A stretch of DNA of 64,000 bases from an uncultured cyanobacterium (GTDB lineage Bacteria; Cyanobacteriota; Cyanobacteriia; Cyanobacteriales; Cyanobacteriaceae): NCBI GenBank assembly GCA_963710605.1, contig CAVQBA010000004.1, positions 1,088,001-1,152,000 on the forward strand, given 5' to 3'. The position numbers were made by a program, and so were the translations under genes. The stretch's first letter is position 1; the number at the start of each line of letters is the position of its first letter. Shown piece by piece: positions 5,647 to 61,807 of the stretch. The notes under the pieces were generated by a model that was given only the letters and a program-made list of their open reading frames with translations, had not been told where the DNA came from and searched no databases.

Positions 5647-5757
5647 CTTAATGGTATGTAGGTAAATCGATCGTTACATATTTACTAAAAAATTAATATT
5701 GAGACATTAATATTCATATAGTTAATTTATTAAAAAAATCAAGAGGTTAGAGAGAGT

Positions 5758-7308
5758 ATGACCGTCGCCAGTGATCAAAAAAAATTTAAAATTAATAAAA
5801 TTGAAAAAATAAAACAAGCCAAACATGGCTTAGATGTCAAAGAAGAAATAGAAAAATTTGCTGAAATTGGTTGGGAAGCGATGGATGAAGATGATTTAGT
5901 TCATCGTTTAAAATGGTTAGGTGTTTTTCATCGCCCTGTAACTCCCGGACAATTTATGTTACGTTTGCGTACACCCAATGGAATATTAAGTAGTGAGCAA
6001 TTACGTGCTTTTGCTGATATCATTCAACGTTACGGTGATGATGGTGCGGCGGATATTACCACACGTCAAAACATTCAATTAAGAGGGATTCACATTGAAG
6101 ATGTTCCCGAAATTTTTGCCAAACTAGACACAGTTGGTATGACTTCGATTCAGTCAGGAATGGATAACGTTCGTAATTTAACAGGTTCTCCAGTAGCAGG
6201 AATTGACCCTGAAGAGTATTTTGATACTAGAGAATTGAATTACAAGTTACAAGACTTGATCACTAATAATGGCAAAGGCAACTACAAATTAAGTGATTTA
6301 CCTCGTAAGTTTAATATAGCGATCGATGGAGCGCCAGACAACTCTATCCATGCTGAATTAAATGACATTGCTTTTATTCCTGCATTTAAAGATGGTGAAT
6401 TTGGTTTTAATGTACTTGTAGGTGGTTTTCTCTCTGCCCAACGTTGTGCTGAAGCAATTCCGATGGGTGTTTGGGTAAATGCTAATGATGAAGTAGTGGA
6501 ATTAGGTTTAGCTATTCTAAAAGTTTATACTGAAAATGGCTTAACTGAAGGATTAAGAGCGAATCGAGGCAAATCTCGTCTGATGTGGTTGATTGATACA
6601 TGGGGAATCGAAAAATTCCGTGATGAGATTGCAACTGAATTAGGATATGAGTTGAAATCGGCGGCAACTAAACACGCCATGACTATGGATAAACGTGATC
6701 ATTTAGGTGTTTATCCTCAAATACAAGACGGTTATAGTTATGTTGGTATTCATGTGCCAGTAGGACATTTACAAGCTGAAGACTTATTTGAAGTAGCTCG
6801 TTTAGCTGAAGTTTATGGTACAAGTGAAATTAGGGCTACCGTTGAGCAGAATTTTATTATTCCTCATGTTGCTAATGATAAAATTGAGGCATTATTAGCT
6901 GAACCTTTATTAGAACGTTTTACGATCGCACCTAATACTTTAAATCGTTCTTTAATCTCTTGTACAGGCTCTCGTTATTGTAATTTTGCCTTAATTGAAA
7001 CCAAACAAAGAGCCGAAAAACTAGCAAGAGAATTAGATGCGGAGTTGAATATACCCGATCGAGTACGTATTCACTGGACAGGTTGCCCAAACTCTTGCGG
7101 ACAGGCTCAAGCAGGTGATATTGGTTTGATGGGTACAAAAGCCAAAAAAGATGGTAAAGTCACCGAAGGGGTAAAACTATTCACAGGTGGAAAAGTTGGT
7201 AAAGAAGCTAGTTTAGGTACTCTCAAAGAAAAAAGTATTGCCTGTGATGATCTTAAACCAATTTTGAAAGATTTACTTATTTCTGAATACGGTGCAACAG
7301 CTAGATAG
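5758..7308 (+). CDS. nirA: Ferredoxin-nitrite reductase
   Basis: ITTRQNIQL, LPRKFN, CTGSRYC and WTGCPNSCGQ siroheme/4Fe-4S motifs. Confidence 0.95.
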   Translation: MTVASDQKKFKINKIEKIKQAKHGLDVKEEIEKFAEIGWEAMDEDDLVHRLKWLGVFHRPVTPGQFMLRLRTPNGILSSEQLRAFADIIQRYGDDGAADITTRQNIQLRGIHIEDVPEIFAKLDTVGMTSIQSGMDNVRNLTGSPVAGIDPEEYFDTRELNYKLQDLITNNGKGNYKLSDLPRKFNIAIDGAPDNSIHAELNDIAFIPAFKDGEFGFNVLVGGFLSAQRCAEAIPMGVWVNANDEVVELGLAILKVYTENGLTEGLRANRGKSRLMWLIDTWGIEKFRDEIATELGYELKSAATKHAMTMDKRDHLGVYPQIQDGYSYVGIHVPVGHLQAEDLFEVARLAEVYGTSEIRATVEQNFIIPHVANDKIEALLAEPLLERFTIAPNTLNRSLISCTGSRYCNFALIETKQRAEKLARELDAELNIPDRVRIHWTGCPNSCGQAQAGDIGLMGTKAKKDGKVTEGVKLFTGGKVGKEASLGTLKEKSIACDDLKPILKDLLISEYGATAR

Positions 7309-8790: not shown

Positions 8791-10650
8791 ATGAAACTGA
8801 ATACACCATTTAAGTTATTCTTGTTGTGCTTTTTTTTTGCATCCTTTAATGTGGTGATGGAAACGAATTATCCTCAAATAATGGCTCAATCACAGGAAAA
8901 AACGATCGCCTCAAATACTGAATTAAAAATCATTAATCAAGGCAAACAAGTTTTAGTGAATGGTAAAAAAGAAAATTTAGCTTGGATACAGTGGCAAGAA
9001 GGAAAAACTATCCGCACAGGTGTTAGTGACATGGGGGCAGAAGAAGTATTAGGGATTGAGTTACTTGGCTCGATTGTACCTAATGAGCAATCTGTACGTT
9101 GGTTTAATTATAGTAGTACTTTAGATACTAAATTTGCTAATCCTTATCGTTATCTAGATTTAACTAATCTAATTCAAAGCACATCATTACAAGCGGTTGT
9201 AGAAGGGCAATTTTTGAATTTAGATATGCCCTCAACTCAAGTAACCCAAGTTTATGAGCAAAAGTCTTTTGATGGTAATAAAAAAGTTGTTATTGAATTA
9301 GATCAACCTAGTTTCTTTAAAGTCAGTCAAGGAAGAAAACAAGGATATATTATTATTAAAGGTAAATATAACCAACCTGTTTTAGATAATTTATTAGATT
9401 TTAATGATCCTGTCAATAATACTCCTTTAGCTGAAGATGAAGAAGGAGATAAAATTATTGGTAATGAAGAAGAAAATATATCTTTATTTAAAGTTACTCC
9501 TAAAGGTGATGAGGAAACAGTAGTAACCGTTAATTTGCCTTTAGGTAGTAATATGAAAGTCACTTCAACTCATCCTAATTTACTGGTAGTTGATTTAAAA
9601 CTTGATGTTGTTACGCCTAGAGAAATTAGTTGGCATGATGATATTCTTCTTAGTCGTCAATATATTCGCCCACTCAATAATCCTGATATTTTTTTAGTTT
9701 CCGCACTTACTTTAAATACACCAAAAAACAATCTTATTCTCCGTCCAATTTTACCTAATTCAGATACAGTAATTGGTGCTTCGCCACTTAAAACGATGGG
9801 TAGTGATTTAAATATTATTGCTGGAATAAATGGTGGTTTTTTTAATCGTAATAATCGCTTACCTTTGGGTAGTATTAAAGATAATAATAATTGGTTATCA
9901 GGACCTATTTTAAATCGTGGAGTGATTGCTTGGGACGATCAAGGTAATTTTAAAATCGATCGTTTACAGTTAGAAGAAGTAGTTACTATCAATAATTCTC
10001 AACGTTTATTTAATAACTATCTCAATAGCGGTTATGTCCAAAAAGGTACAGCTCGTTATACTTCTGCTTGGGGTGAAAATTACACTAGTTTAAGCGATCG
10101 AGAAACAATTTTAGTCATTAAAAATAATCGAGTATTTGATAAAATTATTAGTAATAAAGCTGGAGATACTTCTGTTCAAATTGAACCAAATAGCTATTTA
10201 TTAGTATTAAGAAAAACGCCTGAATTAGCAGAGACAATTAATATTCAAGACCAAATTGAACTAAATAGTTTTACTTTTCCTCGTGAATTTGCCGATTATC
10301 CTTATATGATGGGTGCAGGACCATTACTGGTGTTAAACCGTCAAGTTGTGTTAGATGGAGAAGCCGAAAAATTTAGTAAGGCTTTTAATCAACAAAAAGC
10401 ATCTCGTAGTGCGATCGCAATTAATCAGCAAGGAGAAGTATTATTAGTAGCTGTTCATAATCGAGTTGGTGGTGCAGGACCTAGTTTAAATGAATTAGCT
10501 AATATACTCTTAGAAATGGGAGCAGTTTCGGCTTTAAATTTAGATGGCGGTAGTTCTACACAAATTTATTTAGGTGGGGAGATAATCGATCGTGCTTCGG
10601 CTACGGCGGCAAGGGTAAACAACGGGATAGGTGTGTTTTTGAAAGAATAA
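8791..10650 (+). CDS. Phosphodiester glycosidase (NAGPA) family secreted protein
   Basis: INGGFF, GAGP, RSAIA and ALNLDGGSS motifs; signal peptide. Confidence 0.85.
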   Translation: MKLNTPFKLFLLCFFFASFNVVMETNYPQIMAQSQEKTIASNTELKIINQGKQVLVNGKKENLAWIQWQEGKTIRTGVSDMGAEEVLGIELLGSIVPNEQSVRWFNYSSTLDTKFANPYRYLDLTNLIQSTSLQAVVEGQFLNLDMPSTQVTQVYEQKSFDGNKKVVIELDQPSFFKVSQGRKQGYIIIKGKYNQPVLDNLLDFNDPVNNTPLAEDEEGDKIIGNEEENISLFKVTPKGDEETVVTVNLPLGSNMKVTSTHPNLLVVDLKLDVVTPREISWHDDILLSRQYIRPLNNPDIFLVSALTLNTPKNNLILRPILPNSDTVIGASPLKTMGSDLNIIAGINGGFFNRNNRLPLGSIKDNNNWLSGPILNRGVIAWDDQGNFKIDRLQLEEVVTINNSQRLFNNYLNSGYVQKGTARYTSAWGENYTSLSDRETILVIKNNRVFDKIISNKAGDTSVQIEPNSYLLVLRKTPELAETINIQDQIELNSFTFPREFADYPYMMGAGPLLVLNRQVVLDGEAEKFSKAFNQQKASRSAIAINQQGEVLLVAVHNRVGGAGPSLNELANILLEMGAVSALNLDGGSSTQIYLGGEIIDRASATAARVNNGIGVFLKE

Positions 10651-10672
10651 AAGTCAAAATTTAAGAACATGA

Positions 10673-10887
10673 CGATCGAGAATATTACCTTACAAACAGT
10701 CATAGCTGACCGAACATGACCAATAATCGGCAAGATTACCTGTTAATTTATGGGATTTTAAAGAAGGAGTAAAAGGGTAATTTTCTAATAAGTCTAATAC
10801 TGCTAGTATCCTATTCTTCAACTGAGAATTCTTTTTTATTACACGTTTAAAAGCCTTTTTGAACTTCTTTTCAACTATTAACTTCAT
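10673..10887 (-). pseudogene. YafQ/RelE-family toxin, frameshifted and 3'-truncated
   Basis: LKSHKLTG...WSCSVSYD; frame breaks and similarity ends at CGATCG 10673-10678. Confidence 0.7.
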
Positions 10888-11108
10888 TCTTCTTCATCTG
10901 CTAATAAATAAGCTTTTACTTCTTCAGCAGTTTTTGGTTTTATCTTACCTTCTTGAAATTATTTAATAGTAGCTTGAGCGTTATTTGCTATTTCTAAACG
11001 TCGTTTTTCAATTCGTCTTTTTTTGATCAAATCAAATAAATAATCTTGATCTTCTAGAGGTAAATTCTCAATAGATTCTATAATTTCCTGAAAAGAGACG
11101 ATCGTCAT
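10884..11108 (-). pseudogene. Antitoxin with internal stop
   Basis: MTIVSFQEIIESIENLPLEDQDYLFDLIKKRRIEKRR...TIK*FQEG...; TAA at 10959-10961; ATGA overlap with the toxin start. Confidence 0.7.
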
Positions 11109-11223
11109 TTTATTGTATCTCCATTTTTAAATAATTTTAATAATTTATTTATTGTTTAGACAAGTTTCACCCAAATCGTTCTTTTAATTATAAATTTGAT
11201 TCTTTTATTTTTACTTAACTAAC

Positions 11224-11406
11224 TTATAATTCGGTTACTTTTTTAATTCCAAAGATAAAATTATCAGAAAACTCTTGATACAAATTCTTCAGATGTTCTT
11301 TTAAATCTTCTAAATCTTCTCCTTGAGTCCAATGTTCGGGATATTTATTCAAATAGCCTAAATATTTCCCATCTTCTTCTTGCCAAAAAGTATATTGTAT
11401 TTTCAT
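11224..11406 (-). CDS. HicB-family antitoxin (orphan)
   Basis: YTFWQEEDGKYLGYL..YP..WTQGEDLEDL pattern. Confidence 0.65.
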   Translation of the reverse strand: MKIQYTFWQEEDGKYLGYLNKYPEHWTQGEDLEDLKEHLKNLYQEFSDNFIFGIKKVTEL

Positions 11407-11467
11407 TATTAACCTAACATTTTCTAATTTAAATAAAATAGACATTACTACTTACCATAAATTTATT

Positions 11468-11507
11468 TTAACGTTTGGTTAGTTTAGTTAAAACTTGAAA
11501 ACGATCG
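11468..11507 (-). repeat. Copy of htpG 3' end ending at CGATCG (distal)
   Basis: 29/31 match to 12801-12831; reads DRFQVLTKLTKR* versus ERSNQVLTKLTKR*. Confidence 0.9.
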
Positions 11508-11556
11508 TAAGTTATAATCAAAGCATTGAATCAAATCAAGCTACATAGTTCTAAAA

Positions 11557-11760
11557 ATGGACACCGTAACATTAAAAGCCCTGATCAAAGAAAGTGTTAG
11601 AGAAGTTTTAAGAGAAGAAAAATTACTTTTAATACAATCTCTGATTCCTCCTGTTAAGCAAGAAGAGATGGAAGAGATAATTAATAAATTAGGAAGCCCT
11701 AAAGATTTTAATGAGGAAGACTTTGTTGATATGACTGATTGGTTAAACAATGAAGATTAG
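11557..11760 (+). CDS. Putative antitoxin
   Basis: Small acidic ORF overlapping a downstream RelE toxin. Confidence 0.65.
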   Translation: MDTVTLKALIKESVREVLREEKLLLIQSLIPPVKQEEMEEIINKLGSPKDFNEEDFVDMTDWLNNED

Positions 11761-12034
11761 ATTTAGTAAACGTGCAGTTAAATTTTTAAACAAATTATCA
11801 ACAAAAGAACAAGCAAAAATTAAACAGAAACTAAGAGATTTAATTTCTGAAATTAACAACAATAACAATATACCTTTTCAAAAATTAAATATCAAAACTC
11901 TTAGTGGAGAATGGAAAGACTATTTGAGAATGAGAATCGGAAAAATGAGAATTATCTTTAAAGTCTATTCTGTTGAGAATGAAATATTTATATATGACAT
12001 AGACTATCGAGGAAATATTTATCAAAAGAATTAA
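11750..12034 (+). CDS. RelE/ParE-family toxin
   Basis: KRAVKFL, LSGEWKDYLRMRIGKMRIIF, RGNIY. Confidence 0.85.
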   Translation: MKIRFSKRAVKFLNKLSTKEQAKIKQKLRDLISEINNNNNIPFQKLNIKTLSGEWKDYLRMRIGKMRIIFKVYSVENEIFIYDIDYRGNIYQKN

Positions 12035-12126
12035 ATTTGTATATAGTAAAAGGGCAAGAAAATTCTTACCCTTACTATTATTTTTGAAGTCTATTAAACT
12101 GAAACACAACCTACTCTGAAAGTATT

Positions 12127-12166
12127 TTAACGTTTGGTTAGTTTAGTTAATACTTGAAAACGATCG
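12127..12166 (-). repeat. Copy of htpG 3' end ending at CGATCG (proximal)
   Basis: 30/31 match to 12801-12831, then aaACGATCG. Confidence 0.9.
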
Positions 12167-12232
12167 TACCTATGATAGTAAGAAGAAAATAATTACGATT
12201 AGAATATACTTAATATCTCAACGAATACTATT

Positions 12233-12436
12233 ATGAATATATCAGTGGAAAACGATCGTCTCAAACAAACCATAAAACAGGCAATGCTAGAGCTATTTCA
12301 AGAAAACAAAGAAGAATTTTCTACATTACTAGCAGAAATTATAGAAGATATTGCCTTATCAAAAGCGATCGTACAGGGAGAAGAAACAGAATTAGTAGAT
12401 AAAGAAACTGTTTTTTCTATCTTGGATAAAGAATAA
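12233..12436 (+). CDS. Putative antitoxin
   Basis: Small acidic ORF, TAATG coupling to the RelE toxin. Confidence 0.7.
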   Translation: MNISVENDRLKQTIKQAMLELFQENKEEFSTLLAEIIEDIALSKAIVQGEETELVDKETVFSILDKE

Positions 12437-12702
12437 TGAAAGTAGAATTTAGAAAAAGTTTTGTCAAAGACTTAAAAAAGATCAAAAACTTCAAATTACA
12501 ACGAAAGATAAAATCAATCATTGAAGAAGTGGAAAATGCAGATAATCTTAAACAAATTAGCAATCTTAAATTTCTCAAAGGAGAAAATAATCATTATCGT
12601 ATTAGAATTGGAGACTACAGAATCGGCATAATTATAGAAAATGATGTTGTTAGATTTGTAAGGTTTTTACATCGCCAAAAAATTTATAAATTTTTTCCCT
12701 AA
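12436..12702 (+). CDS. RelE/ParE-family toxin
   Basis: FVKDLKKI, YRIRIGDYRIG, HRQKIY. Confidence 0.88.
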   Translation: MKVEFRKSFVKDLKKIKNFKLQRKIKSIIEEVENADNLKQISNLKFLKGENNHYRIRIGDYRIGIIIENDVVRFVRFLHRQKIYKFFP

Positions 12703-12765
12703 CTGTCTTTAAATATGATAAAGACGTAGCACATTGACTACGCCTTTAAAAAAATAGTTAAATTA

Positions 12766-12796
12766 CGATCACGCAGTGCCAGCCTTCGGCTGATCG
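12766..12796. repeat. Small hairpin repeat embedded in a HIP1-like site (SDR5-like)
   Basis: cgatc-acgcagtgc-CAGCC-ttc-GGCTG-atcg; GC-rich in an AT-rich context. Confidence 0.5.
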
Positions 12797-12800
12797 TTAA

Positions 12801-14771
12801 TTAACGCTTGGTTAGTTTAGTTAATACTTGATTAGAGCGTTCGACAAAAGCATTCATCCCTTCAGCATCAAAAGCACGTTGTGCCATCAAAGCTAAATCA
12901 TAAACATATTGACACATCATGCCTACTGTTTCTTGAGTAGAAGATTCGCCACCATCTTGAATAATCGCACCCTTATTAAGATTGTAAATATTTTCAATCA
13001 AAGGATGAGCTGTATTAATCATCAAAATATGTTCTTCAGGAAACTGCATCTGTGTTTGTTGCATCATCGCTGTCATCTCTTGGAAACGACGCATCGCCTC
13101 AGGTAACAATACCATCGCCGGAGGTGTTTGTTCTTGCTTATCAGCTTTAAGTGACTGAGTTTTGATATTTACTTTAGGTTTACCGATCGCTTTTTCAAAG
13201 ATGTCTTTAATCTCTTCTGCACGGGTTTTATTCGTGGTAGGATCGACTATTTCACTACTTTTATCTTCTTGAACTAAGTTATCATCTAACTCAGAATCGA
13301 CTCTAGAGAATTTAACATCGGTGTATTCTCTTTCAAGGAAAGGAATGAAGTAGTTAGTATCAATGAATGAATCCATATACAATACTTCGATACCTTGATT
13401 TTTGTATAAATCAACATAAGTACTTTGAGTTTGAGCATTATTACAATAGAAAACTCTGTTTTCGTGGTTTTCTTTGTTACGCTCTAAATACTCATTTAAG
13501 GTAGTATAAGGCTCGGTAATGCTATCTTCGTTATTCACATCTTTCCAAGCGTCATCATCATCAGTTTGTACTTCAACTTTAGGTTTTTCTTCTGTCGCTG
13601 TTTCTGGTTGATAAGTACTACGGAAGATGATTAAGTCTTCTACTTGTTTTTTGAATTTGTCGTCTCTTAAAGAGCCATATTTGACAAATGTACCGACATC
13701 TTCCCAAGAATCGATATATTTCTTCTTATCTTCTTTATACAAAGATTTTAGACGATCGCCTATTTTTTTACTAATGAAATCAGAAATACGACGTACGGTA
13801 CGATGATTTGTTAAAGCACTACGAGAAACATTTAAAGGAATATCAGGGCTATCAATCACACCACGAAGAGGCATCAAAAACTCAGGAATAATCTCTTCAC
13901 AATGATCACTTACAAACACCTGATTACAGAAAAGTTTGATTTGCCCTTTATTAACATCAACATCAGGTTTTAGTTTAGGGAAATATAAAATTCCGTTAAG
14001 TAAAAAAGGATAATCTGTGTTTAAATGTACCCATAGTAAAGGATCTTCTTGAAATGGATAAAGATAACGATAAAACTCTAAATAATCTTCATCAGTCAAA
14101 TCACGAGGAGATTGTTTCCAAGGTGCTTTCTGACGATTAACTTGCTCTTCACCCATCTTGATAGCGACAGGAATAAAATCAGAATATTTTTTGACTAAGC
14201 CTTTAATTCTAGCTTCCTCGGCATATTCTGTTTCCTCATCCATTAAAGTAAGAGTAACAGTTGTGCCAGGAGTAGTACGAGTAGATTCGCTTAATTCAAA
14301 TTCAGGTGAGCCATCACAAGACCAATGAACAGCAGTTGCACCTTCACGATAAGATAAGGTATCAATCTCTACTTGAGTCGCTACCATAAAGGCAGAATAG
14401 AAACCTAAACCGAAGTGTCCGATTAAATCATTAGGTGATTTGCTATATTGAGTGATGAAGTCTTCGGCACTAGAAAAAGCAACTTGGTTGATATATTTTT
14501 TGATTTCGTCGGTTGTCATACCGATACCATTATCAGTAATGGCGAGAGTTTTTTTCTCTTTATCTACAGCGACGGTAATTTCAGGCTCAGGTAAATCTCC
14601 TGTTATTTCTCCGGCTAATGATGCCATCTTCGCTTTGGATATAGCATCGACGGAGTTAGAGATTAATTCTCTTAAAAAGATTTCGTGGTCGGTGTAGAGG
14701 GATTTTTTGATGATGGGAAATATATTTTCAGTATGAATACTAATATTTCCTTTCTCTAAAACGTTGCTCAT
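12801..14771 (-). CDS. htpG: Molecular chaperone HtpG (Hsp90)
   Basis: IFLRELISNS, DNGIGM, IGHFGLGFYSAF, LNVSRS. Confidence 0.97.
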   Translation of the reverse strand: MSNVLEKGNISIHTENIFPIIKKSLYTDHEIFLRELISNSVDAISKAKMASLAGEITGDLPEPEITVAVDKEKKTLAITDNGIGMTTDEIKKYINQVAFSSAEDFITQYSKSPNDLIGHFGLGFYSAFMVATQVEIDTLSYREGATAVHWSCDGSPEFELSESTRTTPGTTVTLTLMDEETEYAEEARIKGLVKKYSDFIPVAIKMGEEQVNRQKAPWKQSPRDLTDEDYLEFYRYLYPFQEDPLLWVHLNTDYPFLLNGILYFPKLKPDVDVNKGQIKLFCNQVFVSDHCEEIIPEFLMPLRGVIDSPDIPLNVSRSALTNHRTVRRISDFISKKIGDRLKSLYKEDKKKYIDSWEDVGTFVKYGSLRDDKFKKQVEDLIIFRSTYQPETATEEKPKVEVQTDDDDAWKDVNNEDSITEPYTTLNEYLERNKENHENRVFYCNNAQTQSTYVDLYKNQGIEVLYMDSFIDTNYFIPFLEREYTDVKFSRVDSELDDNLVQEDKSSEIVDPTTNKTRAEEIKDIFEKAIGKPKVNIKTQSLKADKQEQTPPAMVLLPEAMRRFQEMTAMMQQTQMQFPEEHILMINTAHPLIENIYNLNKGAIIQDGGESSTQETVGMMCQYVYDLALMAQRAFDAEGMNAFVERSNQVLTKLTKR

Positions 14772-48924: not shown

Positions 48925-49428
48925 ATGAGCGTCCTTAGTGATATTCAAAAATGGTATGCTTCAAATTGCGACGGTGAATGGGAACACAGTTACGGTATTT
49001 CGATCGATACTCTTGATAATCCAGGTTGGTCTATTACGGTTAATCTTAAAGATACAAATTTGGAAGACAAAAATTTTGAGCCTTTTAAGAACAGGGTTTC
49101 CGAAGATAGATGGATTTCTTGTTTAGTAAAAGACAATAAGTTTAGGGGTGCAGGAGACGAAACGAAACTTGAGGAAATTTTAAAAGTATTTTTAGATTGG
49201 GCAAAAAACATTAACGAAGATTGGTTAAAATCATCGACTCAGCTTTGTGAGGAAGAATTACAATTTTTAGAAGATGCAGAATTTATAAATTTACTTGGCG
49301 AAGAGATTGGTACGGAGCTTTGTAAAAGTGAAGGTTGTATACGTAAACGAATAGAGAATAGTGTAATGTGTCGCCGTCATCATTTTGAAATGGTTAAGGA
49401 GCGTTCATTTCCCGATAGTATCAGCTAA
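48925..49428 (+). CDS. Immunity protein 53 (Imm53)-like with C-terminal Cys/His extension
   Basis: WYASNCDGEWEHSYGISIDTLDNPGW signature. Confidence 0.8.
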   Translation: MSVLSDIQKWYASNCDGEWEHSYGISIDTLDNPGWSITVNLKDTNLEDKNFEPFKNRVSEDRWISCLVKDNKFRGAGDETKLEEILKVFLDWAKNINEDWLKSSTQLCEEELQFLEDAEFINLLGEEIGTELCKSEGCIRKRIENSVMCRRHHFEMVKERSFPDSIS

Positions 49429-49513
49429 CAAGTTAATAGAGGGACTAACAAAACAGCTACTTTGTCAATTTTTAAGATTTACTATGAATGCTTACCTCAA
49501 CTATTATTTATTA

Positions 49514-49616
49514 GTAATTCATTAACTTTTCAACGATCGACCACACTTTAATTAAATGACTTTGTTGCAAACCATTAATCCTCTATAAATATTTAAACTC
49601 TACAACAATCAATCGC
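49514..49616 (-). repeat. Decayed copy A of the glycosyltransferase 3' end
   Basis: acgatcgaccacactttaattaaatgac...aaatatttaaactctac aligns to about 58035-58139. Confidence 0.8.
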
Positions 49617-51443: not shown

Positions 51444-51459
51444 AAATCCAGCATCATAA

Positions 51460-51697
51460 TTAATTATTCATTAACTTCTGACCGATCGACCATACTTTAA
51501 CCAAATGACCTTGTAACAAAGCCTAATACCCGCAAATATTTAAACCCTACGATATCTGAATCGAGTTTTAAGGTAGTTTGTAAAGCTTTTTCACCTTTTT
51601 CGCTCAAACCAATCATAAAGATCAAGAAAGCTCAAATAAGCGTGATTATAGGCATTGTTTGGATATAAACTAACTAGTTTTTTAGCAGTAGCGATCG
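51460..51697 (-). repeat. Copy B of the glycosyltransferase 3' end (~240 bp) ending at CGATCG
   Basis: Aligns to about 58034-58272 with small indels; ends at CGATCG 51692-51697, matching CGATCG 58267-58272. Confidence 0.92.
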
Positions 51698-51754
51698 ATC
51701 GATTTTTTGTTGTCTAGTCAAGTAAATTTATCAATACATATTTTTAGGATAGTT

Positions 51755-52897
51755 TTAAGCGTCTTGGTCAGTAGGTTTTGGTAGATCGAAGTAAAAAGTA
51801 CTACCTCGACCCAAATCCGACTCAACACCAAGTTTTCCATCATGTTGTTCGACAATTCGCTGACATAATGCTAACCCGATACCGCTACCTTCGGCTCGTT
51901 GTTCGCCCCCTCGGACAAATAGTTGAAAAATTTTCTCTTGCTCTTCAGGCAAAATACCAGGGCCATTATCTGTAAGCCGAACTAGATAGCGATCGTTTTT
52001 TAATTCACAATAAACCATAACAACAGGCGTTGACGTTTGATTATGAACGATGGCGTTTTTAATCAAATTACTCACCAGATTTTCTAATAGTTTAGCATTA
52101 CCTTTTACTATAGGAAGGTTACTCCAATCGATCGAGGCTTGATGGGTATCGATCGTATTTTGCAATCCATTTACCGCTTGCTCGACGACAAGATTCAGAT
52201 CGACAGGTTCAAATTTAAGATTGCGTCGGGATTTAAGTTTGCCATATTCTAATAAGGCGTTTAGCGTTTGGTTCATTTTACGAGAAGTCTGCAAGCCCAT
52301 TTGCACGATTTTTTGGTTACGGCTTTCTAGTTCGCTTTCTTGGAGTAAATCTAAACTAACTGTGACCACGTTAAGCGGGTTACGTAGTTCGTGAGCCACC
52401 GTATGGCTAAAATTTTCTAGCTCTCGATTGCTTTCGTGAAGCCTTTCGAGTGTATCTCGCAGTTGAAACTGACGCTGACGATTGCTCAAACAAACTTGTA
52501 CGATGGAAGTAAATTCATGACGCTGGAGCGGTGTTTCTAACAGGGTGACGCCGCGTTGATGTCGGGCAGATTGTAACATCGTCATACAGGTAGAAAAATG
52601 GCGACAATTTTTGAGTAAAAAAATTAGAGGAATATCAGACCAATCAGGCTGTTTGTTCAAGCACTCCGCTAGTCGATCGAAATTATTGTCGATCGCAAGC
52701 ACTTCTTCGGTAATAATTACCAAGCTGACTTCTGCACGAATAGCAGTTATTACCGTCTCGATCGAATCCGTAGCCATACAGTCTATTTCTTCAATTTCAA
52801 GCAGTTGTCTTACCGCCTTAGCATTGTGAGCCAACTTAGTTGAAATCACAACAGTATCCGCAGAAAGTTGGGAAGAATCGTTAAATTTAGAGATCAT
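51755..52897 (-). CDS. Sensor histidine kinase with a degenerate receiver-like N-terminus
   Basis: AHELRNPL H-box, NLIKNA, DNGPG, GIGL; QPDWSDIPLI. Confidence 0.88.
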   Translation of the reverse strand: MISKFNDSSQLSADTVVISTKLAHNAKAVRQLLEIEEIDCMATDSIETVITAIRAEVSLVIITEEVLAIDNNFDRLAECLNKQPDWSDIPLIFLLKNCRHFSTCMTMLQSARHQRGVTLLETPLQRHEFTSIVQVCLSNRQRQFQLRDTLERLHESNRELENFSHTVAHELRNPLNVVTVSLDLLQESELESRNQKIVQMGLQTSRKMNQTLNALLEYGKLKSRRNLKFEPVDLNLVVEQAVNGLQNTIDTHQASIDWSNLPIVKGNAKLLENLVSNLIKNAIVHNQTSTPVVMVYCELKNDRYLVRLTDNGPGILPEEQEKIFQLFVRGGEQRAEGSGIGLALCQRIVEQHDGKLGVESDLGRGSTFYFDLPKPTDQDA

Positions 52898-54404
52898 TTT
52901 CTATCAATTTTGTCGGTTCGCCAATATATTTAGGAATACCAGAAAGTATGCCCGAAAATTGTTCGAGGGGATCGCCAATATGGATGCCATTCGCATCGAA
53001 CCTAATTTCGCGAATCCCCTTTTCGTGAGCACCGTAGCGTTTTTTGTACACCCCGATCGCTTTATGTATAGCTCCTTTAGCTTCAAAATGCCGTAGTAAC
53101 AATACAGAATCAGCTAAGTAACTAATATCAACACTCCCCTCTAATCGATCGCCAATCACCCCGTGTTGTGCCACCACTAACAGAGTCAAGACATTTTGCC
53201 GATTGAGCATAATTAACAGATCGTGCATTAGGGTGACGAGCTTTTCGTTGCTTGGCATAGAATTAGCGTAGCCCGTCAAGCTATCAATTAAAACAATCTT
53301 AGCTCCCCATTCTTTTACATCCTCATTGATTTGAGCCCTAAATTTACCTGGGTTGCTGTTACTTAAGCCTAATTCACGAATCCGAATTTGGTCTGGATAA
53401 TCCTGCGGATTTAAGCCAATATCAAGTCCTTCAGATCGTTTGAGGAAAGTACTTGCAAGTTCATCAAACAGAAAAACACTAGCTTTTCCACCTTGACTGA
53501 TGAAGTTATGAATAAACAAACTAGCAAGAGTCGTTTTCCCCGTACCAGAAGGCCCAATTAATAAAGATGAAGTTCCCGTAAGTAGATAGCCGCCAATAAG
53601 TTTATCAAAAGAATCGATACCGCTTGACATGGGCTGATAAGATTCTTTATCATCATTAGGAGTCTGAGAAATTAGATGAGGAGCTTGATGCTGAATATGA
53701 TAAATGTTCATACCTTGGCTGGTAATTTCCATATCGTGAATTCCTGACTGAAAATTACTGCCTCGGAGTTTGGATACTTGCAGATACCGGTAATCTTGAC
53801 TGTAAGTAGTCGTCACTCTCGACAGGTTAATTACACCGTGGGCGATGGAAACTAGTTCGCAATCGCCAGGAGCCAGCTTTTGGTCGTCTGTCAACATGAT
53901 GGTGATGTTACGATTGTGCATATAGTCCCGCAGTAATAGTAAATTACGTCGATAAACTAACTTATCATTAGCTAACATCCGTAAATAGGCAATACTGTCA
54001 AATATTACACGTCGGGGCTTTACCGCTTCGATGACTTCTATAAATTGAGTCATTGTTGTTTCTAACTCAAGATCGGAGGTATCGAAAATGGTCTGCTGTT
54101 GTTCTGTTGCTTCTAGTGCTTGTAACTTACCAAATTCTTCAAAAACGATACCATCAGGATCGATACCCACCGAAGTGGCTGTCTGTTTTATGCTTTGTAC
54201 CCTTTGAGATAAGGCAATGCACAATACTTTTTCATCTGCCTCTACTCCCGATCGTAAAAAATGTAATCCCAGAATTGTTTTTCCTGTTCCCGGCTCACCA
54301 TTGACAACATAAATTTCTCCTTCAGGAAGACCGCCACAAATTATGTCATCAAGGGAGGCAATCCCTGTAGAAATTCTTACTAAAGAGCTAGAGGCATCTT
54401 TCAT
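52887..54404 (-). CDS. KaiC-like / RAD55-family double-domain ATPase
   Basis: Two Walker A motifs GEPGTGKT and GPSGTGKT; KLRGS; DISYLAD. Confidence 0.85.
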   Translation of the reverse strand: MKDASSSLVRISTGIASLDDIICGGLPEGEIYVVNGEPGTGKTILGLHFLRSGVEADEKVLCIALSQRVQSIKQTATSVGIDPDGIVFEEFGKLQALEATEQQQTIFDTSDLELETTMTQFIEVIEAVKPRRVIFDSIAYLRMLANDKLVYRRNLLLLRDYMHNRNITIMLTDDQKLAPGDCELVSIAHGVINLSRVTTTYSQDYRYLQVSKLRGSNFQSGIHDMEITSQGMNIYHIQHQAPHLISQTPNDDKESYQPMSSGIDSFDKLIGGYLLTGTSSLLIGPSGTGKTTLASLFIHNFISQGGKASVFLFDELASTFLKRSEGLDIGLNPQDYPDQIRIRELGLSNSNPGKFRAQINEDVKEWGAKIVLIDSLTGYANSMPSNEKLVTLMHDLLIMLNRQNVLTLLVVAQHGVIGDRLEGSVDISYLADSVLLLRHFEAKGAIHKAIGVYKKRYGAHEKGIREIRFDANGIHIGDPLEQFSGILSGIPKYIGEPTKLIENDL

Positions 54405-54644: not shown

Positions 54645-55091
54645 ATGGCGAAACTCTACTACCGTGGTATGGCACAGCAAGATGGTAAATCAAAAATAGG
54701 TAGAAGTGCCAGACTATTAGGAATTAGACTTAACATCGATATAAACGTTGAGCAAATACCAATAGGTTATCTTGACAAGCAAGGATATTTGTTACCAGAG
54801 TCATAGCGTCAGATTTCAGAAAAACTAGTAACCGTTGCTATTAAAGAGAATAAGGGAATGTCTGTGTCTTTATCGATCGACAGTTTACCTGCATTTCGTA
54901 AACCTGCCAAATTTGGCGGAAAGGGAAAAGATACTCTTTGGCAAATTGATGACAGCTATATCATAAAAGATTTACAGGCTGTTCAAGATAGCCCGACACA
55001 CGTTAGCATTATGCCAAGAGTTACAATGACTTTAGAAAGGTACGAGACAGCATTGGCAAATACCCAAAATTATTGGCAAAAAGTTGACTAG
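54645..55091 (+). pseudogene. Putative Tse2/ADP-ribosyltransferase-like toxin with an internal TAG
   Basis: MAKLYYRGM...GMSVS...THVSIMP; TAG at 54804-54806; GAGG RBS. Confidence 0.5.
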
Positions 55092-55112
55092 TAAAATATA
55101 CGAAAATAGGAG

Positions 55113-55649
55113 GTGGCAAAAATGGCATGGATATTTAGTTTATCAGCAGAATGTGGTTGCGATCGAATCAACGCAGATAAATTTGCTCAACATTTTGAGG
55201 GAATGTCATTGTTGCTATCAAACGATCGTCAGTACAAATGTCTTACGGACATATTCCAAGACATAGAAGAAAATTGGTGGTGTCGAGTTTTACCAAGTAA
55301 TCTTAGTGAAGTGGGAATAGAAGCCAATGAAAGTGCTTATTTAATGACAGAGTTAGGTATTTCACTTTATCAGTCTCTACGATTTGCGACAACCTTTCGT
55401 TATGCACTAGTTGGTGTTGAAGTGGATGAATTTAGAACTTACAGCGAACTGATTGAAGATTCTGCTAATTTATCTATACCAGGATTAGTTTTGAATAAGA
55501 CACTTGCAATAGATTTAGAAATATTATCAGCTTTTCGAGCCTTTAGTTCTAATTATGTTTGGCAACCTTACGCAGGAGAAATCTACAATCCACTCATGAC
55601 ATACCCAAATTTAAAAAATAAGTTGAATGAATTGTTAGCTGTAATTTAA
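55113..55649 (+). CDS. Hypothetical protein, probable immunity/antitoxin partner
   Basis: AGGAGG RBS; lies immediately downstream of the toxin-like ORF. Confidence 0.6.
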   Translation: MAKMAWIFSLSAECGCDRINADKFAQHFEGMSLLLSNDRQYKCLTDIFQDIEENWWCRVLPSNLSEVGIEANESAYLMTELGISLYQSLRFATTFRYALVGVEVDEFRTYSELIEDSANLSIPGLVLNKTLAIDLEILSAFRAFSSNYVWQPYAGEIYNPLMTYPNLKNKLNELLAVI

Positions 55650-56030: not shown

Positions 56031-56241
56031 TCATGAGCTAGAAGATGATTTAAGACCTGAATATGACTTTAGCAAGATGCAAGGTGGTATTAGGGGAAAA
56101 TATGTCGATCGCTATCAGGCAGGAACAAACATCGTATTACTCGAAGCTGATGTTGCTCAAGTGTTTGCGACAAGTGACGAGGTTAATAAGGCACTTCGAT
56201 TACTTATGCAAATAGCCCAAAGGCAGAAGCCTAATACCTAA
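56020..56241 (+). CDS. BrnA-like antitoxin
   Basis: DLRPEYDFS..GIRGKY, LEADVAQVF..VNKALR. Confidence 0.7.
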   Translation: MENNHELEDDLRPEYDFSKMQGGIRGKYVDRYQAGTNIVLLEADVAQVFATSDEVNKALRLLMQIAQRQKPNT

Positions 56242-56374
56242 TTATTCATCAACTTTTGACCGATCGACCATACTTTAACTAAATGCCCCTGTAACAAAGC
56301 ACTTATACCTTCTAAATATTTGAACTTTACGACATTTGGATATAAACTAACTCATTTTTTAGTAGTAACGATCG
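56238..56374 (-). repeat. Copy C of the glycosyltransferase 3' end with a 102-nt internal deletion, ending at CGATCG
   Basis: Aligns to about 58036-58137 plus 58240-58272. Confidence 0.92.
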
Positions 56375-57817: not shown

Positions 57818-57901
57818 AATGACCTTGTAACAAAGCACTAATCCCCTCCAAATATTTAAACTCTACGACATCTGGATCGAGTTTTAAGGCAGGTTGCAAA
57901 G
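57818..57901 (-). repeat. Copy D of the glycosyltransferase 3' region
   Basis: Encodes LQPALKLDPDVVEFKYLEGISALLQGH, identical to the gene, with 4 synonymous changes. Confidence 0.93.
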
Positions 57902-58030: not shown

Positions 58031-60565
58031 TTATGAATTATTGATTAATTTTTGACCGATCGACCATACTTTAACTAAATGCCCCTGTAACAAAGCACTA
58101 ATACCCTCTAAATATTTAAACTCTACGACATCTGGATCGAGTTTTAAGGCAGGTTGCAAAGCTTTTTCGCCTTTTTCGCCATTCCAATCATAAAGATAAA
58201 GAAAGCTCAAGTAACCGTGGTTATAGGCATTGTTTGGATATAAGCTAACTAATTTTTTAGCTGTGACGATCGCAGGTTCTACTTTTTGTTGTAAAACTTG
58301 AGACAATAATAATGTATAAAGATAATCAGAATTATTTTCGGTTTGCAGTCGATGTAGTAAGGTTTTTTCGGTTACTTTTAAATAGGCTTGATCGGGATCG
58401 TATTGATTAATTCTACCAACTGTTGCAAAAACAGGCTCTAACCCTTCTATTCCTTCACCTAAAGCAGGGGCAAGACGATTAATTTCACTGACTAAATCTA
58501 ATTCTCTTTGAGCAACGGGAGAAGTTATATTTTGCTCGACTATAATTTGTGTTGGCGGTATGGTTAAAGGTTTTGTTTTTCCTGTTGTTTTATTTAATAA
58601 TTGTGCTTCTAAAATATAGTTACCGTCGGGTATATTTTCAGGAATAAACATCGCTGTATTTTCGATTACTTGAAAATCTTTATTTAATTCATTTTTAGCT
58701 AAGTTATCAAAATATAAATTACTCATTCCTAAACTGTGGTCATGAGTCCATTTTATCGTTTTATTTTCTGATGAATACCATGTCAATAAAACGATCGTTT
58801 CTTCTAATTCTTGAGCTGTTCCAGTCCATTTATAAGTAATATCAACTGTCTTATTTTGACTTACTTGTGAAGGAAAAATAACCTCATTTAATTCTAAATT
58901 GCTATTAGTTGAATTAAGAGGATTAACAATAGTTTGTAACTGCTGTCTTTGATATAGTTGCAAATAACTTTCGTCGGGTAAAAGCCATTTATCTAGTAAA
59001 CTAAAATCACCACCATTTTCGACTAAATCAACTGTCATTTTCTGTGCGTCGGGAATCGAACCTTGTTCGCCTGTTTTCGTCAGAAACCAATCTAAAGCAT
59101 TGACATCTTGAGGTACTTCTTTTTCTCTTACTCCGACTTGTCTGCCATATACTTGTTGCGAATCGGGAATCGAGCCATAAAAAGAAACGTTTGATTGATT
59201 GATTTTACTAGTAGAGGGCAAAACCCCGATATTCATTCTCAGATAAGGATTAGTTTGTTTTGCTTTTTCGACTAATTCAGGTACAGCCCATTGTTTTCCT
59301 GTATAAGGATAATTTTCCATTTTTGGGCTGAGTTTATTAGTAATAAAACTTCCTCCTAAAGGGAAAAGATTGAGTAACATTAAAATCAAAGCGATCGATA
59401 CTGTTACTATTTTGAACCACTTCTTTTTTTCTCCTCGATAACTATAAATTAAAGCACTAACTATTAAGGTACAAATAGGTAGTAAGGGCAAAATATAACG
59501 AGCATCTTTATTAATATTTAAAGACGATAATAAGTATCCACCTAAGATAAAAGTTATTAACCAGAAAGTAATAGTTTTAATTTTGTTTTCTGGTAGAGTA
59601 TTTTGATAAAAGTTTTTTTGCAAATATAACCAAATATTTTTAGTTTTGACTGAAGAGTTTTTAAAATATTTAATTGCTAAATAGATAAGACAAAAAAGAC
59701 TAACTAATAATAAAAATGAGGATAATAAGTAAGGAGAAACCTCAGCATAAAATGTCCATGCTTTAAGAGTATTTAAACTAGGATCGCCTTCAATGATAGC
59801 AGAATCGATCGTCGCTCTTTTTCCTGAAGTAAAAATGACTAACCAATTAGTACGATACCAAGGATAAAAAAGGATAATTGCTGACAATGACATTAAAATT
59901 ATTTGCCCGACTCTATGCCATTTTCGTTGCCAAATTGAAAAGATACAAACAAAAAGAAAAGGAAAAAAGAGAAAAAAAGCAAATGTTTGTTTGAGTAACA
60001 ATCCTAAACCGAAAGAAATACCTGTTAATAGACTTAGCCACCACGAAGATTTACCTTGACTGAAATACCAATAACTCAGACAAGTAAAACTAAAAGTAAT
60101 CATGACAGTGAGAGGATAATCTAATAAAAATTCTCGCCGAAAATAATATAACCCTGGTATTAAAGGAATTAAGACACAAGCGAGTAAAGCTATTCGTTGG
60201 TTAAAAAATAATTTACCTAGATAAAAAATACTGAAAATTAGTAATAAACTAAAACCCGAAAAAACTAAATTACCGCTACTCAAACTAGGGGGTAAGATAT
60301 GAAAACACAAACCCGTAATGATATAAATCAACGGTGGAATTTTATTTGAAAGTAACCAAAACTCACGCCACGATGATAAATCAAAAATATCGAGATTGAC
60401 TAACCCTTCTTTGTAACCCATCACCCCATTAAGGTAGTCAGCGGGATCCCATGATGGTACGCTATTATCTAAACTAAACCAAACTCGATCGATTATTAAA
60501 CCAATTAGCCAAATCGATATTAGGATTAAAATAGGGTTCGTTTTTTTGATTATATTTGCTGACAT
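58031..60565 (-). CDS. GT39/ArnT-like lipid-carrier glycosyltransferase with C-terminal TPR-like repeats
   Basis: PSWDPADY, KIPPL, LLDYP, LLKQT, KDARYILP; multiple TM helices; TPR-like tail. Confidence 0.85.
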   Translation of the reverse strand: MSANIIKKTNPILILISIWLIGLIIDRVWFSLDNSVPSWDPADYLNGVMGYKEGLVNLDIFDLSSWREFWLLSNKIPPLIYIITGLCFHILPPSLSSGNLVFSGFSLLLIFSIFYLGKLFFNQRIALLACVLIPLIPGLYYFRREFLLDYPLTVMITFSFTCLSYWYFSQGKSSWWLSLLTGISFGLGLLLKQTFAFFLFFPFLFVCIFSIWQRKWHRVGQIILMSLSAIILFYPWYRTNWLVIFTSGKRATIDSAIIEGDPSLNTLKAWTFYAEVSPYLLSSFLLLVSLFCLIYLAIKYFKNSSVKTKNIWLYLQKNFYQNTLPENKIKTITFWLITFILGGYLLSSLNINKDARYILPLLPICTLIVSALIYSYRGEKKKWFKIVTVSIALILMLLNLFPLGGSFITNKLSPKMENYPYTGKQWAVPELVEKAKQTNPYLRMNIGVLPSTSKINQSNVSFYGSIPDSQQVYGRQVGVREKEVPQDVNALDWFLTKTGEQGSIPDAQKMTVDLVENGGDFSLLDKWLLPDESYLQLYQRQQLQTIVNPLNSTNSNLELNEVIFPSQVSQNKTVDITYKWTGTAQELEETIVLLTWYSSENKTIKWTHDHSLGMSNLYFDNLAKNELNKDFQVIENTAMFIPENIPDGNYILEAQLLNKTTGKTKPLTIPPTQIIVEQNITSPVAQRELDLVSEINRLAPALGEGIEGLEPVFATVGRINQYDPDQAYLKVTEKTLLHRLQTENNSDYLYTLLLSQVLQQKVEPAIVTAKKLVSLYPNNAYNHGYLSFLYLYDWNGEKGEKALQPALKLDPDVVEFKYLEGISALLQGHLVKVWSIGQKLINNS

Positions 60566-60593
60566 ATAGAGAGTAGAAAAATATTCATTAATT

Positions 60594-61807
60594 ATGACAA
60601 AAAAAATTGCCATTATTGGGGCAGGAATAGCAGGTTTAACTATCGGTAAGAATTTACAGGCAGAAGGTTTTGAGGTTAATATTTTTGATAAAGGACGGGG
60701 TGTTGGTGGTAGAATGTCCAGCAGAAGAACAAATTGGGGTTATCTTGACCACGGTTGTCAATATTTTACCGCCAAAGATTCTTTATTTGCTAGTTTTATT
60801 CAGGAAAATGACGAACTTGTTCAAGTTTGGCAAGGAAAGTTTGCACGTTGGCAAGATGGTAATTATACACCTTTAGAGATTGCGACAATGAATCTCTCAA
60901 TCCCCTTCAATTCCCCCGTAAATCCCCTTAACCCAATCCCCCCCAGTAACTCAATCCTCCCTCAATCCTCCTTTAGTAAATCAATCCCCCCTCAATCCTC
61001 CTTTAGTAAACCAATCCCCCCAATCCCCCACAACGTAGCAATGCTACGTCTCTACAAAGGGGGGAGGAAAATTTAGATAAATTAAACAAAACAGGTGTAA
61101 CAAGATTAAATAAAAATGTTATTACTCATTCTCGTTACGTGCCGACGAAGGCGATGAATAATCTGTGTAAATCGATCGCTACAACACTTGATGTTAAATT
61201 ACAAACTAGAATTGTCAATCTGACTAAAAATCAGAAGAAATGGACTTTAACTGATGAAAATGCTAATCAATATAGTGGTTATGATTGGTTAATTGTCACT
61301 GCACCACCTGCCCAAACGCAAGATTTGTTAACAAGTCATACTGTCATTGCTGAAGAGATAGCCCAGATAAAAATGCTTCCTAATTTTACTTTGATGTTAA
61401 CTTTAGCTGAGGAGATGAATCTTCCTTTTGATGGCATCGAATTACAACACCCGATTTTAGGTTGGATTGCCGTCAATAATAGCAAACCTTCACGAGGAGA
61501 AAAAACAAGTATTGTGATTCAATCTAACTTTACTTGGGCGACTGATAATCTGGAAAACAATCGAGATACTATTACGCAACAATTACAAAATAGTGCTAGT
61601 GAAATTATGGATATAGATTTGGATAAATGTCTGTATAAATCATTACATTTATGGCGTTATGCAATACCTGCACAGAAGAATGAGGCTGGTTGTTATATCG
61701 ATCGTGAAAATGCGATCGGTGTTTGTGGAGATTGGTGTATCGGCGGTAAAGTAGAAGCGGCTTTTAATAGTGCTAATTTATTAACAGATTCGATCGTCGA
61801 TCGTTAA
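60594..61807 (+). pseudogene. Renalase-like NAD/FAD-dependent oxidoreductase interrupted by a repeat-derived insertion and frameshift
   Basis: IIGAGIAG, GGRMSSRR, DHGCQYF in the 5' part; HLWRYA, GDWCIGGKVEAA in the 3' part; C-rich repeats at about 60890-61070. Confidence 0.8.

Follow-up and report, generated by a model that had tools for sequence, protein, structure and literature searches.

Toxin–antitoxin cassettes bounded by displaced copies of the htpG 3' end in a HIP1-rich cyanobacterial genome

How toxin–antitoxin (TA) modules without mobility genes move and settle in chromosomes is one question, and what HIP1 (for highly iterated palindrome 1), with its core CGATCG, does in cyanobacteria is another, still debated one; the two meet at the htpG gene of an uncultured member of the Cyanobacteriaceae (NCBI GenBank assembly GCA_963710605.1). 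The stretch analysed here, called the window, comprises 64 kb of contig CAVQBA010000004.1 (positions 1,088,001 to 1,152,000) from a genome of 3,930,250 bases (3.93 Mb), labelled G000 where genomes must be told apart. In this window, displaced 3' ends of htpG bound TA cassettes. The reading that we hold with moderate confidence is that the htpG 3' end is an insertion hot spot, which TA cassettes of ~0.5–0.8 kb entered serially by insertion with long target duplication, likely through host recombination joined at CGATCG. Seen in this light, the locus is a compact record of repeated insertions at one spot across several genera, with joints that can be read base by base.

The evidence begins with the last 31 nucleotides (nt) of htpG, hereafter the tail, which recur twice downstream of the gene, both times in the orientation of the htpG 3' end (Table 1). 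Searched for with up to three mismatches, the tail pattern matches three places in the window (mean 0.00 and maximum 0 in 100 dinucleotide shuffles) and the same three, all at the htpG locus, in the whole genome; it is therefore no dispersed repeat. An earlier sequence-only reading of the window had proposed that copies of the htpG 3' end, beginning at CGATCG and differing from the gene by synonymous changes, lie at these places, and had named a dispersed repeat as the finding that would speak against it. Sequence comparison and translation uphold the proposal, including the identities that it gave for the two copies and both synonymous mismatches (AAG>AAA and GTA>GTT). Translated from CGATCG, both copies read DRFQVLTKLTKR followed by the stop, as against a gene terminus ending in ERSNQVLTKLTKR and stop. 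A further 11–12 nt on the gene strand (TACGATCGTTTT), absent from present-day G000 htpG, precede both copies, and when tail and junction are taken together 45 of 46 positions match (11464–11509 against 12123–12168). Because of this match, and because both copies carry AAA where htpG has AAG, the two copies are sisters, with the gene tail as outgroup. From start to start, the tails are spaced 674 and 659 nt apart. As a dispersed cassette end the junction was rejected, CTTGAAAACGATCGTA occurring with at most one mismatch at four places, of which only the two at the htpG locus are exact and adjoin a tail; as a promoter it was likewise rejected, with 10 promoter-like sites against 12.3 expected. 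No decayed tail copy was found among the older cassettes at 10641–11467, where the best local alignment scored 22 and the shuffle maximum was 28.

Table 1. Positions of the features at the htpG locus and at a second locus, counted from the first letter of the window (aa, amino acids; ORF, open reading frame).
Feature	Position	Strand	Remarks
htpG	12801..14771	-	Intact ORF of 656 aa; Hsp90-family chaperone; source of the copied 3' end; Pfam HSP90 (192 bits) and HATPase_c
Working htpG tail, 31 nt	12801..12831	-	Last 10 codons, stop codon and one base of the preceding codon
Terminator-like hairpin	12719..12748	-	Separates the htpG stop codon from where the pair-2 toxin gene ends; sole such site in 10600-12900; 1 against 0.6 expected, not significant alone
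TA pair 2	12233..12702	+	RelB-like antitoxin 12233-12436 (RelB_like_antitoxin PF25734, 56.2 bits); RelE/ParE-fold toxin 12436-12702 (ParE_toxin PF05016, 41.8 bits)
Tail copy 2 with junction	12127..12168	-	Tail 12127-12157, 30/31 identical to the gene; CGATCG-bearing junction 12158-12168
TA pair 1	11557..12034	+	Antitoxin 11557-11760; RelE/ParE-fold toxin 11750-12034 (ParE_toxin PF05016, 29.8 bits)
Tail copy 1 with junction	11468..11509	-	Tail 11468-11498, 29/31 identical to the gene; same junction 11499-11509
Older cassette, 73-aa ORF	11224..11445	-	No Pfam family; 80% DNA identity to positions 5681-5886 of the metagenome relative L089-L091
Oldest cassette, decayed	10690..11108	-	Truncated antitoxin 10959-11108 (49 aa); truncated YafQ/RelE toxin 10690-10887 (65 aa; PF15738, 34.6 bits)
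PMT-family glycosyltransferase gene	58031..60613	-	860 aa; Pfam PMT and PMT_2; 3' end copied downstream
Four 3'-end copies of the 860-aa gene	57818-57901, 56240-56374, 51456-51713, 49504-49607	-	80-95% identity by blastn; 84 to 264 nt

Outward from the htpG stop, the order is hairpin, pair 2, junction and copy 2, pair 1, junction and copy 1, the 73-aa ORF (tentatively HicB-like), the truncated antitoxin with YafQ, and a convergent NAGPA gene. Read on the + strand, each tail copy is followed by an overlapping antitoxin and toxin pair (overlaps of 11 nt in pair 1 and 1 nt in pair 2); both pairs are convergent with htpG, and these cassettes, facing the gene, presumably use their own promoters. 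Both are predicted to be intact type II TA modules of the RelE/ParE superfamily, with toxin scores above the PF05016 cut-off of 23 bits, and throughout 10690–12702 the Pfam families are those of toxins and antitoxins, besides a sub-threshold HAAS match (18.7 bits against a cut-off of 27). The outer TA genes are decayed, because the YafQ match covers profile positions 2–65 of 88 and the 49-aa antitoxin has homologues of 74–75 aa in relatives, where full-length homologues of the oldest pair were found. Pfam matches and truncations thus agree with the earlier description of an antitoxin–RelE pair beside each copy and of older, decayed TA genes farther out. Since the antitoxins of pairs 1 and 2 give no alignment at E<=100 and their toxins share 40% identity across 68 residues, the two pairs are different cassettes and not diverged duplicates. 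Homologues of the pair-2 antitoxin, 53–63% identical, occur at other loci in five family relatives.

The same architecture is found in relatives, whose HtpG proteins (17 family members) are 72–84% identical to that of G000 across the last 299 aa. When a degenerate pattern of the last ten codons was scanned over 20 family genomes, G000 included, extra tails appeared only in G000 (three tails in all), G017 (three), G009 (three) and G004 (two), that is, in three of six genera; 11 of the 20 genomes gave exactly one match and five gave none. Altogether, besides one metagenome contig (L089–L091), three of the 19 family relatives, belonging to two further genera, carry one to three extra copies just downstream of htpG. 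All extra tails lie on the gene strand and at most ~3.1 kb downstream of the gene, and a control with the reversed pattern gave one match in total. At the protein level, among 39 related genomes with an htpG match, extra matches (two, overlapping) occur in G009 only, where they mark a decayed htpG C-terminus ~2 kb downstream. The second available genome of the window's own genus is uninformative, being 67% complete and without an htpG match. The metagenome contig holds an htpG gene with 80.3% DNA identity and, behind it, three tail copies; tails are spaced 722 nt apart in G004, and 636 and 487 nt apart in G017.

Between the relatives' tails lie small genes, many of them TA genes or TA-associated, including ParE/RelE pairs, RelB-like or Unstab_antitox antitoxins and DUF4926. 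In G004, a homologue of pair 1 in the same orientation (74.5% DNA identity over 479 nt) separates htpG from its tail copy, and another homologue, with a disrupted toxin gene, is present in G009; the pair-1 toxin is 67% identical to the G004 protein and 62% to that of G009. The pair behind the tail copy of G004 stands first after htpG in G017. Furthermore, the YafQ pair (81% identical in DNA) and the 73-aa ORF stand in opposite order in G000 and L089–L091 at 80–81% identity, matching the 80.3% of htpG itself, and in L089–L091 the 73-aa ORF also directly follows a tail copy. Lone antitoxin genes lie downstream of htpG in G015 and G007. Cassette content and order vary between genomes, and gene order downstream of htpG is otherwise not conserved among the 20 relatives. 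The region is a long-lived, variable cassette site. As regards the disrupted G009 gene, an insertion of ~150 nt (oriented positions ~490–640 of locus L039) breaks it relative to G004, and the adjoining antitoxin is 99% identical between the two genomes.

The boundaries of the copies are equally informative. Counted back from the end of the htpG stop codon, the ten copies start at −31 (both of G000), −33 (first of G017), −38 (second of G009), about −49, −58 and about −59 (the three of L089–L091), −56 (second of G017), −57 (G004) and −274 (first of G009). The G004 copy also keeps a fragment from −137 to −110, so that it represents an internally deleted version of the long G009 copy, and old copies therefore erode. 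In relatives, the repeats run through the htpG terminator, up to 60 nt beyond the stop, and repeat length spans a tenfold range, from 31 nt at pair 2 (30/31 identical) through 46 nt at pair 1 (45/46) to ~318 nt in G009. Such variable starts, together with the passage through the terminator, fit a long and variable target duplication and not a fixed att core. In G004 and G009, the differences that bear on gene and copy comprise two concerted changes and no orthologous one, a hint that exchange between repeats is continuing.

On the favoured reading, each insertion would strand a second tail copy beyond the insert, and htpG would stay intact because a full tail follows the gene body. Joining would be carried out by the host's own recombination, with no dedicated integrase, and one joint would fall at CGATCG, 34–39 nt before the end of the stop codon in the R-S codons of htpG, with the motif acting as a short homology or as a break point. 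The tail repeats could then serve as portable homology, through which RecA-type recombination would add, swap, shuffle and delete cassettes by several routes: crossing over out of register with a donor array, the return of an excised circle, and gene conversion. Where the distal tail of a donor pairs with the working tail of the recipient and the gene bodies pair normally, a double crossover would add one cassette and one tail, and excised circles might re-enter by a single crossover. Addictive TA pairs, rather than other genes, would be the inserts that persist. Searches for dedicated machinery gave negative results: the tyrosine recombinase family PF00589 has no match in the window, its eight genome matches all lying elsewhere; in the 3.6 kb downstream of htpG, none of the 95 ORFs of 20 relatives carries an integrase domain, and transposase domains occur there in G006 only; and an attC-like fold, sought at three sites as single-stranded DNA on both strands, gave z-scores of −1.18 to +1.14 against shuffles.

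A mode of this kind has been described for other cargo. Furuta, Abe and Kobayashi (2010; PMC2853133) report restriction–modification (RM) genes that carry no mobility genes and whose insertion, by a mechanism given as unknown, duplicated target sequence over long and variable lengths; the flanking repeats frequently take in a start or stop codon, and the cases include Microcystis. A 2013 review by the same group (PMC3874152) ascribes insertion with long target duplication to RM systems only. The htpG locus resembles these cases in having an addiction-type unit, no transposase or integrase, flanking direct repeats, longer than 30 bp and not dispersed, of putative target sequence, an insert below 20 kb, and a neighbouring gene that survives. 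Homologues of restriction and modification genes are what its inserts lack, RelE/ParE-type TA pairs taking their place, so that the mode appears to be the same and the cargo class different. Unlike the RM cases, moreover, the type II TA inserts at htpG are iterated at one site as an array, the hot spot extends across genera, and edges lie at the HIP1 core. If read in this manner, the htpG arrays extend insertion with long target duplication from RM genes to TA genes.

The role of CGATCG must be judged against its abundance. The genome is HIP1-rich, with 8449 occurrences of CGATCG where 338 are expected (2.15 per kb, a mean spacing of 465 nt) and 708 of GCGATCGC (HIP1) where 9 are expected, and the core is so frequent that proximity alone therefore means little. 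At htpG, CGATCG occupies the R-S codons in nine of 20 relatives and likewise in the L089–L091 gene, and in G009, G004 and G017 no CGATCG other than this one, at −39 to −34, occurs in the gene's last 900 nt. Of the ten copies, four start inside it or 0–3 nt after it, and the homology breakpoints of G009 and G017 fall in it or just after it. The sequence-only reading had expected some related alleles to encode D-R here (GAT CGT) and to carry different TA pairs downstream. Its expectation holds for the presence of the motif and, in several relatives, for the different TA genes; it fails for the codons, since D-R occurs in none of the 20 relatives nor in the metagenome relative, and the motif-bearing alleles read CGA TCG (R-S), one base out of register with the CGATCG of the copies.

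Genome-wide, local direct repeats (copies no more than 12 kb apart, identity 85% or higher, minimum length 36 nt) were examined for motifs shared by both copies 0–5 nt inside the edge, and CGATCG was ranked among the 206 hexamers with at least 3000 genomic copies. All 143 pairs together (286 edges) have CGATCG at 15 edges against 3.69 expected, the second rank. In the 82 low-copy pairs (at most four genomic copies; 164 edges) it is found at 10 edges against 2.12 expected, an excess of ~4.7-fold over the density prediction and the first rank, followed on ranks 2–5 by hexamers that overlap it; repeat interiors hold 6 against 8.81 expected, and all frequent hexamers pooled reach 0.59 of expectation at low-copy edges. 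The 17 pairs that are at least 95% identical (34 edges) have the motif at six edges and at no interior offset. A link between CGATCG and repeat edges is thus probable in this genome and unproven in general. The excess at the edges of young, low-copy duplications makes HIP1 as a recombination signal a testable idea. Beside these results, two short dispersed families (47 and 17 genomic copies, at C5:207568–207732 and C7:121527–121681 of G000) end 2–3 nt beyond CGATCG; they are perhaps miniature mobile elements that have the motif as their terminus or as their insertion site.

HIP1 has been linked to recombination before: Robinson et al. in 1997 reportedly described HIP1-promoted excision, and Akiyama et al. 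in 1998 are said to have described plasmid recombination in a HIP1 context. Studies of the motif concern transformation efficiency, motif spacing and deletion in test constructs, whereas the joints at htpG would be natural ones. Methylated HIP1 sites are reported to raise transformation efficiency, and Chi-like or uptake-signal roles have been proposed (bioRxiv 10.1101/2024.09.10.611283; PMC13756078), with PMC5861425 belonging to the same literature on HIP1 in transformation and function. In the openly readable literature, supplements aside, we found neither TA cassettes bounded by gene-end copies nor natural duplication or insertion joints at HIP1.

A second array in the window extends the picture beyond htpG. 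The sequence-only reading had pointed to the same phenomenon at 48–58 kb, and four tail copies do lie downstream of an 860-aa gene there (Table 1), and the start of the copy ending at 56374 coincides with a CGATCG that the gene has as well. The intervening cassettes include a ParE-like pair, Imm53, a Tse2-like fragment, KaiC with a histidine kinase, and an S1-domain protein. Across the genome, a low-copy direct repeat of at least 24 nt within 2.5 kb flanks eight of 48 toxin genes (21 ParE/RelE, 6 PIN and 21 HicA) as compared with 73 of 1500 random loci; the eight include both htpG pairs and two further loci that have a single repeat in common. Special targeting of gene 3' ends was rejected, since neither exact-seed nor blastn scans showed an excess over mirrored controls: partial gene-tail copies downstream (20 blastn hits in 15 genes) are no commoner than gene-head copies upstream (23 hits in 23 genes), and the process is therefore not special to 3' ends. 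The earlier claim of a genome-wide process accordingly stands for toxin loci flanked by duplications and not for gene tails as such. The general feature is addiction-type cassettes flanked by duplicated target sequence.

Individual loci illustrate this feature, and the head-copy cases, too, enclose addiction-type genes (VapBC; HicAB). A VapBC-like pair (C6:468206–469436 of G000, with its PIN toxin at C6:468538–468903) is flanked by a 228-nt direct repeat, 92.5% identical, which starts at GCGATCGC and reaches over the 5' end of the gene next to it; the repeat measured 90 nt when scanned with gene heads as queries, and refinement extended it to 228 nt. A HicAB pair with a DNA methyltransferase stands behind a 98-nt duplication. 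At C7:309384–311114, a ParE-family toxin locus has a 49-nt direct repeat, 95.9% identical, which begins at one CGATCG and ends 4 nt after another.

Several observations weigh against the favoured reading and are best taken together. The first is the 12-nt junction, which the gene lacks and which is identical beside both G000 copies: joints that arose independently by illegitimate recombination would not be expected to share it, and either a cassette-borne site or a later duplication of the 46-nt junction region is needed. Pair 1 might have entered a tail that was displaced beforehand, duplicating 46 nt on insertion, which would make pair 2 the older arrival; alternatively, the junction might travel with the cassettes, as a site-specific system or exchange among the arrays of one population would give. 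Second, the NAGPA gene of the outer flank is not adjacent to htpG in any relative, and for that reason no true empty site with the same outer flank can be aligned; none was found, and no single insertion event is directly documented. Nor are the relatives independent samples. Third, the cluster of starts from −49 to −59, half of the ten copies, has no CGATCG and could reflect common descent or a defined site. Moreover, present-day G000 htpG reads CGC TCT at the R-S place, and the CGATCG of the G000 copies is one base out of register with that of relatives (CGATCG TTTT CAA against CGATCG AAY CAA). The edge enrichment itself rests on one genome and 10–15 events; raw BLAST end points show no CGATCG excess within 0–2 nt (14 against 12.7 and 22 against 20.0), four of the 13 repeat pairs with an edge motif belong to dispersed families of 6–47 copies, and a conserved motif could anchor alignment ends in diverged repeats. 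Replication in 1.6 Mb of G004 gave only 31 repeat pairs, with one edge event against 0.36 expected, too few to decide.

The best surviving alternative, which we consider possible and yet doubtful, is site-specific integration, with the cassettes as integrase-less satellites or relics of the cis-mobilizable element (CIME) or tycheposon type, an attP that carries the last 31–60 nt of htpG, a recombinase supplied in trans, and tandem accretion as at tRNA genes. Integrative elements, and derivatives of them that lack an integrase, reportedly accrete in tandem at the 3' end of a tRNA or protein gene, as CIMEs do and the tycheposons of Prochlorococcus (bioRxiv 10.1101/2020.12.28.424599). The likeness is considerable, in that direct repeats of a gene's 3' end bound successive inserts in tandem, the incoming copy restores the gene, here a conserved one kept intact, and relics accumulate; the shared 12-nt non-gene arm would be the P arm carried by the cassette, starts in two tight classes across genera (−31 to −38 and −49 to −59) are what a defined site would give, and the eight tyrosine recombinases encoded elsewhere in the genome could act in trans. 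The resemblance ends, however, at the machinery and the dimensions: no integrase lies at the site in 21 genomes, whether in the window or within 3.6 kb downstream of htpG in the 20 relatives, and the repeats, with copy starts ranging from −31 to −274 and lengths up to ~318 nt that take in the terminator, are not of the fixed length that an att core would impose. Furthermore, the non-gene arm is not conserved between genera, like duplications occur at unrelated sequences and at gene 5' ends, and the units are uniformly of single-operon size, 0.5–0.8 kb as against several kb, unlike relics of random deletion.

A bolder interpretation, which we regard as unlikely, makes CGATCG the physical joint of a recombinase-free, integron-like capture system in which CGATCG-bounded DNA is spliced at gene ends with target duplication; breaks or short-homology pairing would occur at methylated CGATCG, and the gene-end repeats would act as portable recombination sites. 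The cassette arrays of chromosomal integrons, and clusters of attC sites lacking integron-integrases (CALINs), are rich in TA cassettes in Vibrio. As in such arrays, small, mostly single-operon cassettes, TA modules prominent among them, stand in order at htpG, separated by a repeated site and shuffled between relatives; unlike integrons, the locus has no IntI (PF00589) in the window and no attC-like fold, and what is repeated between its cassettes is coding sequence, from the 3' end of a housekeeping gene. If this interpretation were true, HIP1 would gain a concrete role in building accessory-gene arrays, and the piling up of addiction modules behind conserved genes such as htpG would be explained.

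That the array had a purely local origin seems more improbable still. Here, one old tail duplication would have been followed by unequal crossing-over between genome copies and by gene conversion, with cassettes later swapped with relatives by ordinary double crossover, no special mode of insertion and no role for CGATCG. Cyanobacteria are polyploid. The sister relationship of the two G000 copies, nearer to each other (45/46) than to the gene and sharing AAA against its AAG, would follow, as would the concerted changes of gene and copy in G004 and G009 (two against none); pair 1 (74.5%) and the older cassettes (80–81%) are, in addition, about as diverged as htpG itself (77.6% and 80.3%), which is consistent with vertical descent. 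Such a history would, however, be expected to leave diverged duplicates, and the unrelated antitoxins and distant toxins of pairs 1 and 2 are not of that kind; cassette content differs in every genome, and the first duplication, the genome-wide edge excess of CGATCG and the excess of flanking repeats at toxin loci all remain unexplained by it. Least probable, and in our judgement very unlikely, is that the association with CGATCG is a by-product of a frequent, conserved motif ending alignments at a hot spot where insertions past the stop codon are harmless, for even though the spacing of the motif, the raw BLAST end points, the dispersed families and the uninformative G004 replication would all suit it, CGATCG ranks first at edges once dispersed families are removed and shows no interior enrichment, its excess is strongest in the youngest repeats, and three independent htpG copies in three genera break at the sole CGATCG of the last 900 nt.

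Some further observations concern the cassettes and their occurrence elsewhere. At the second locus (54858–55649), a 77-aa ORF has a match to the Tse2 ADP-ribosyltransferase toxin family (44.4 bits) that is confined to the C-terminal part, and it is followed by a 178-aa ORF of no family, possibly its immunity gene; with the Imm53 immunity gene at 48925–49428, this suggests that the second array holds relics of polymorphic toxins. One cassette, at 51755–54404 between two 3'-end copies of the 860-aa gene, consists of a double-domain, KaiC-like ATPase of 505 aa together with a histidine kinase of 380 aa.

A RelE/StbE pair carried by a conjugative plasmid of Gloeothece verrucosa PCC 7822 (NC_014502.1) shares 74% DNA identity with the oldest htpG pair (10696–11094), which hints at cassette exchange between plasmids and the chromosome; a plasmid search with the whole array matched the oldest pair alone and found no cassette-plus-tail unit on any plasmid. 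In public sequencing runs, one run contained part of the stretch (share 0.16), and its two short exact contigs (11903–12112 and 12795–13053) showed neither joints nor polymorphism; they may derive from the source sample and have no bearing on mobility. The pair-1 toxin has a homologue in 27 of 201 genomes of the order, beside htpG in G004 and G009 only, and a search of genome contigs gave two distant matches (30–37% identity) in unrelated metagenome-assembled genomes. At 26 other pair-1 toxin loci, a direct repeat of at least 22 nt flanks three, against one of 29 control loci; a general flanking-repeat signature for this toxin family was rejected, two of the three repeats looking like dispersed palindromic repeats.

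A pair-2 homologue belongs to another cassette array (locus L077, G012:C17:28621–31818, locus positions 41–2306), in which small gene pairs are separated by a repeat of ~60–150 nt with a central GCGATCG. It is flanked by a 307-nt direct repeat, 93% identical, which covers the 3' part of an upstream 80-aa gene, and its toxin gene is truncated at the joint. Finally, at C4:589519–591513 of G000, a 180-aa ORF, presumably similar to transposases of the tyrosine type associated with repetitive extragenic palindromes (REP), is bordered on one side by a 444-aa gene and on the other by 52 nt copied from the tail of that gene (84.6% identical).

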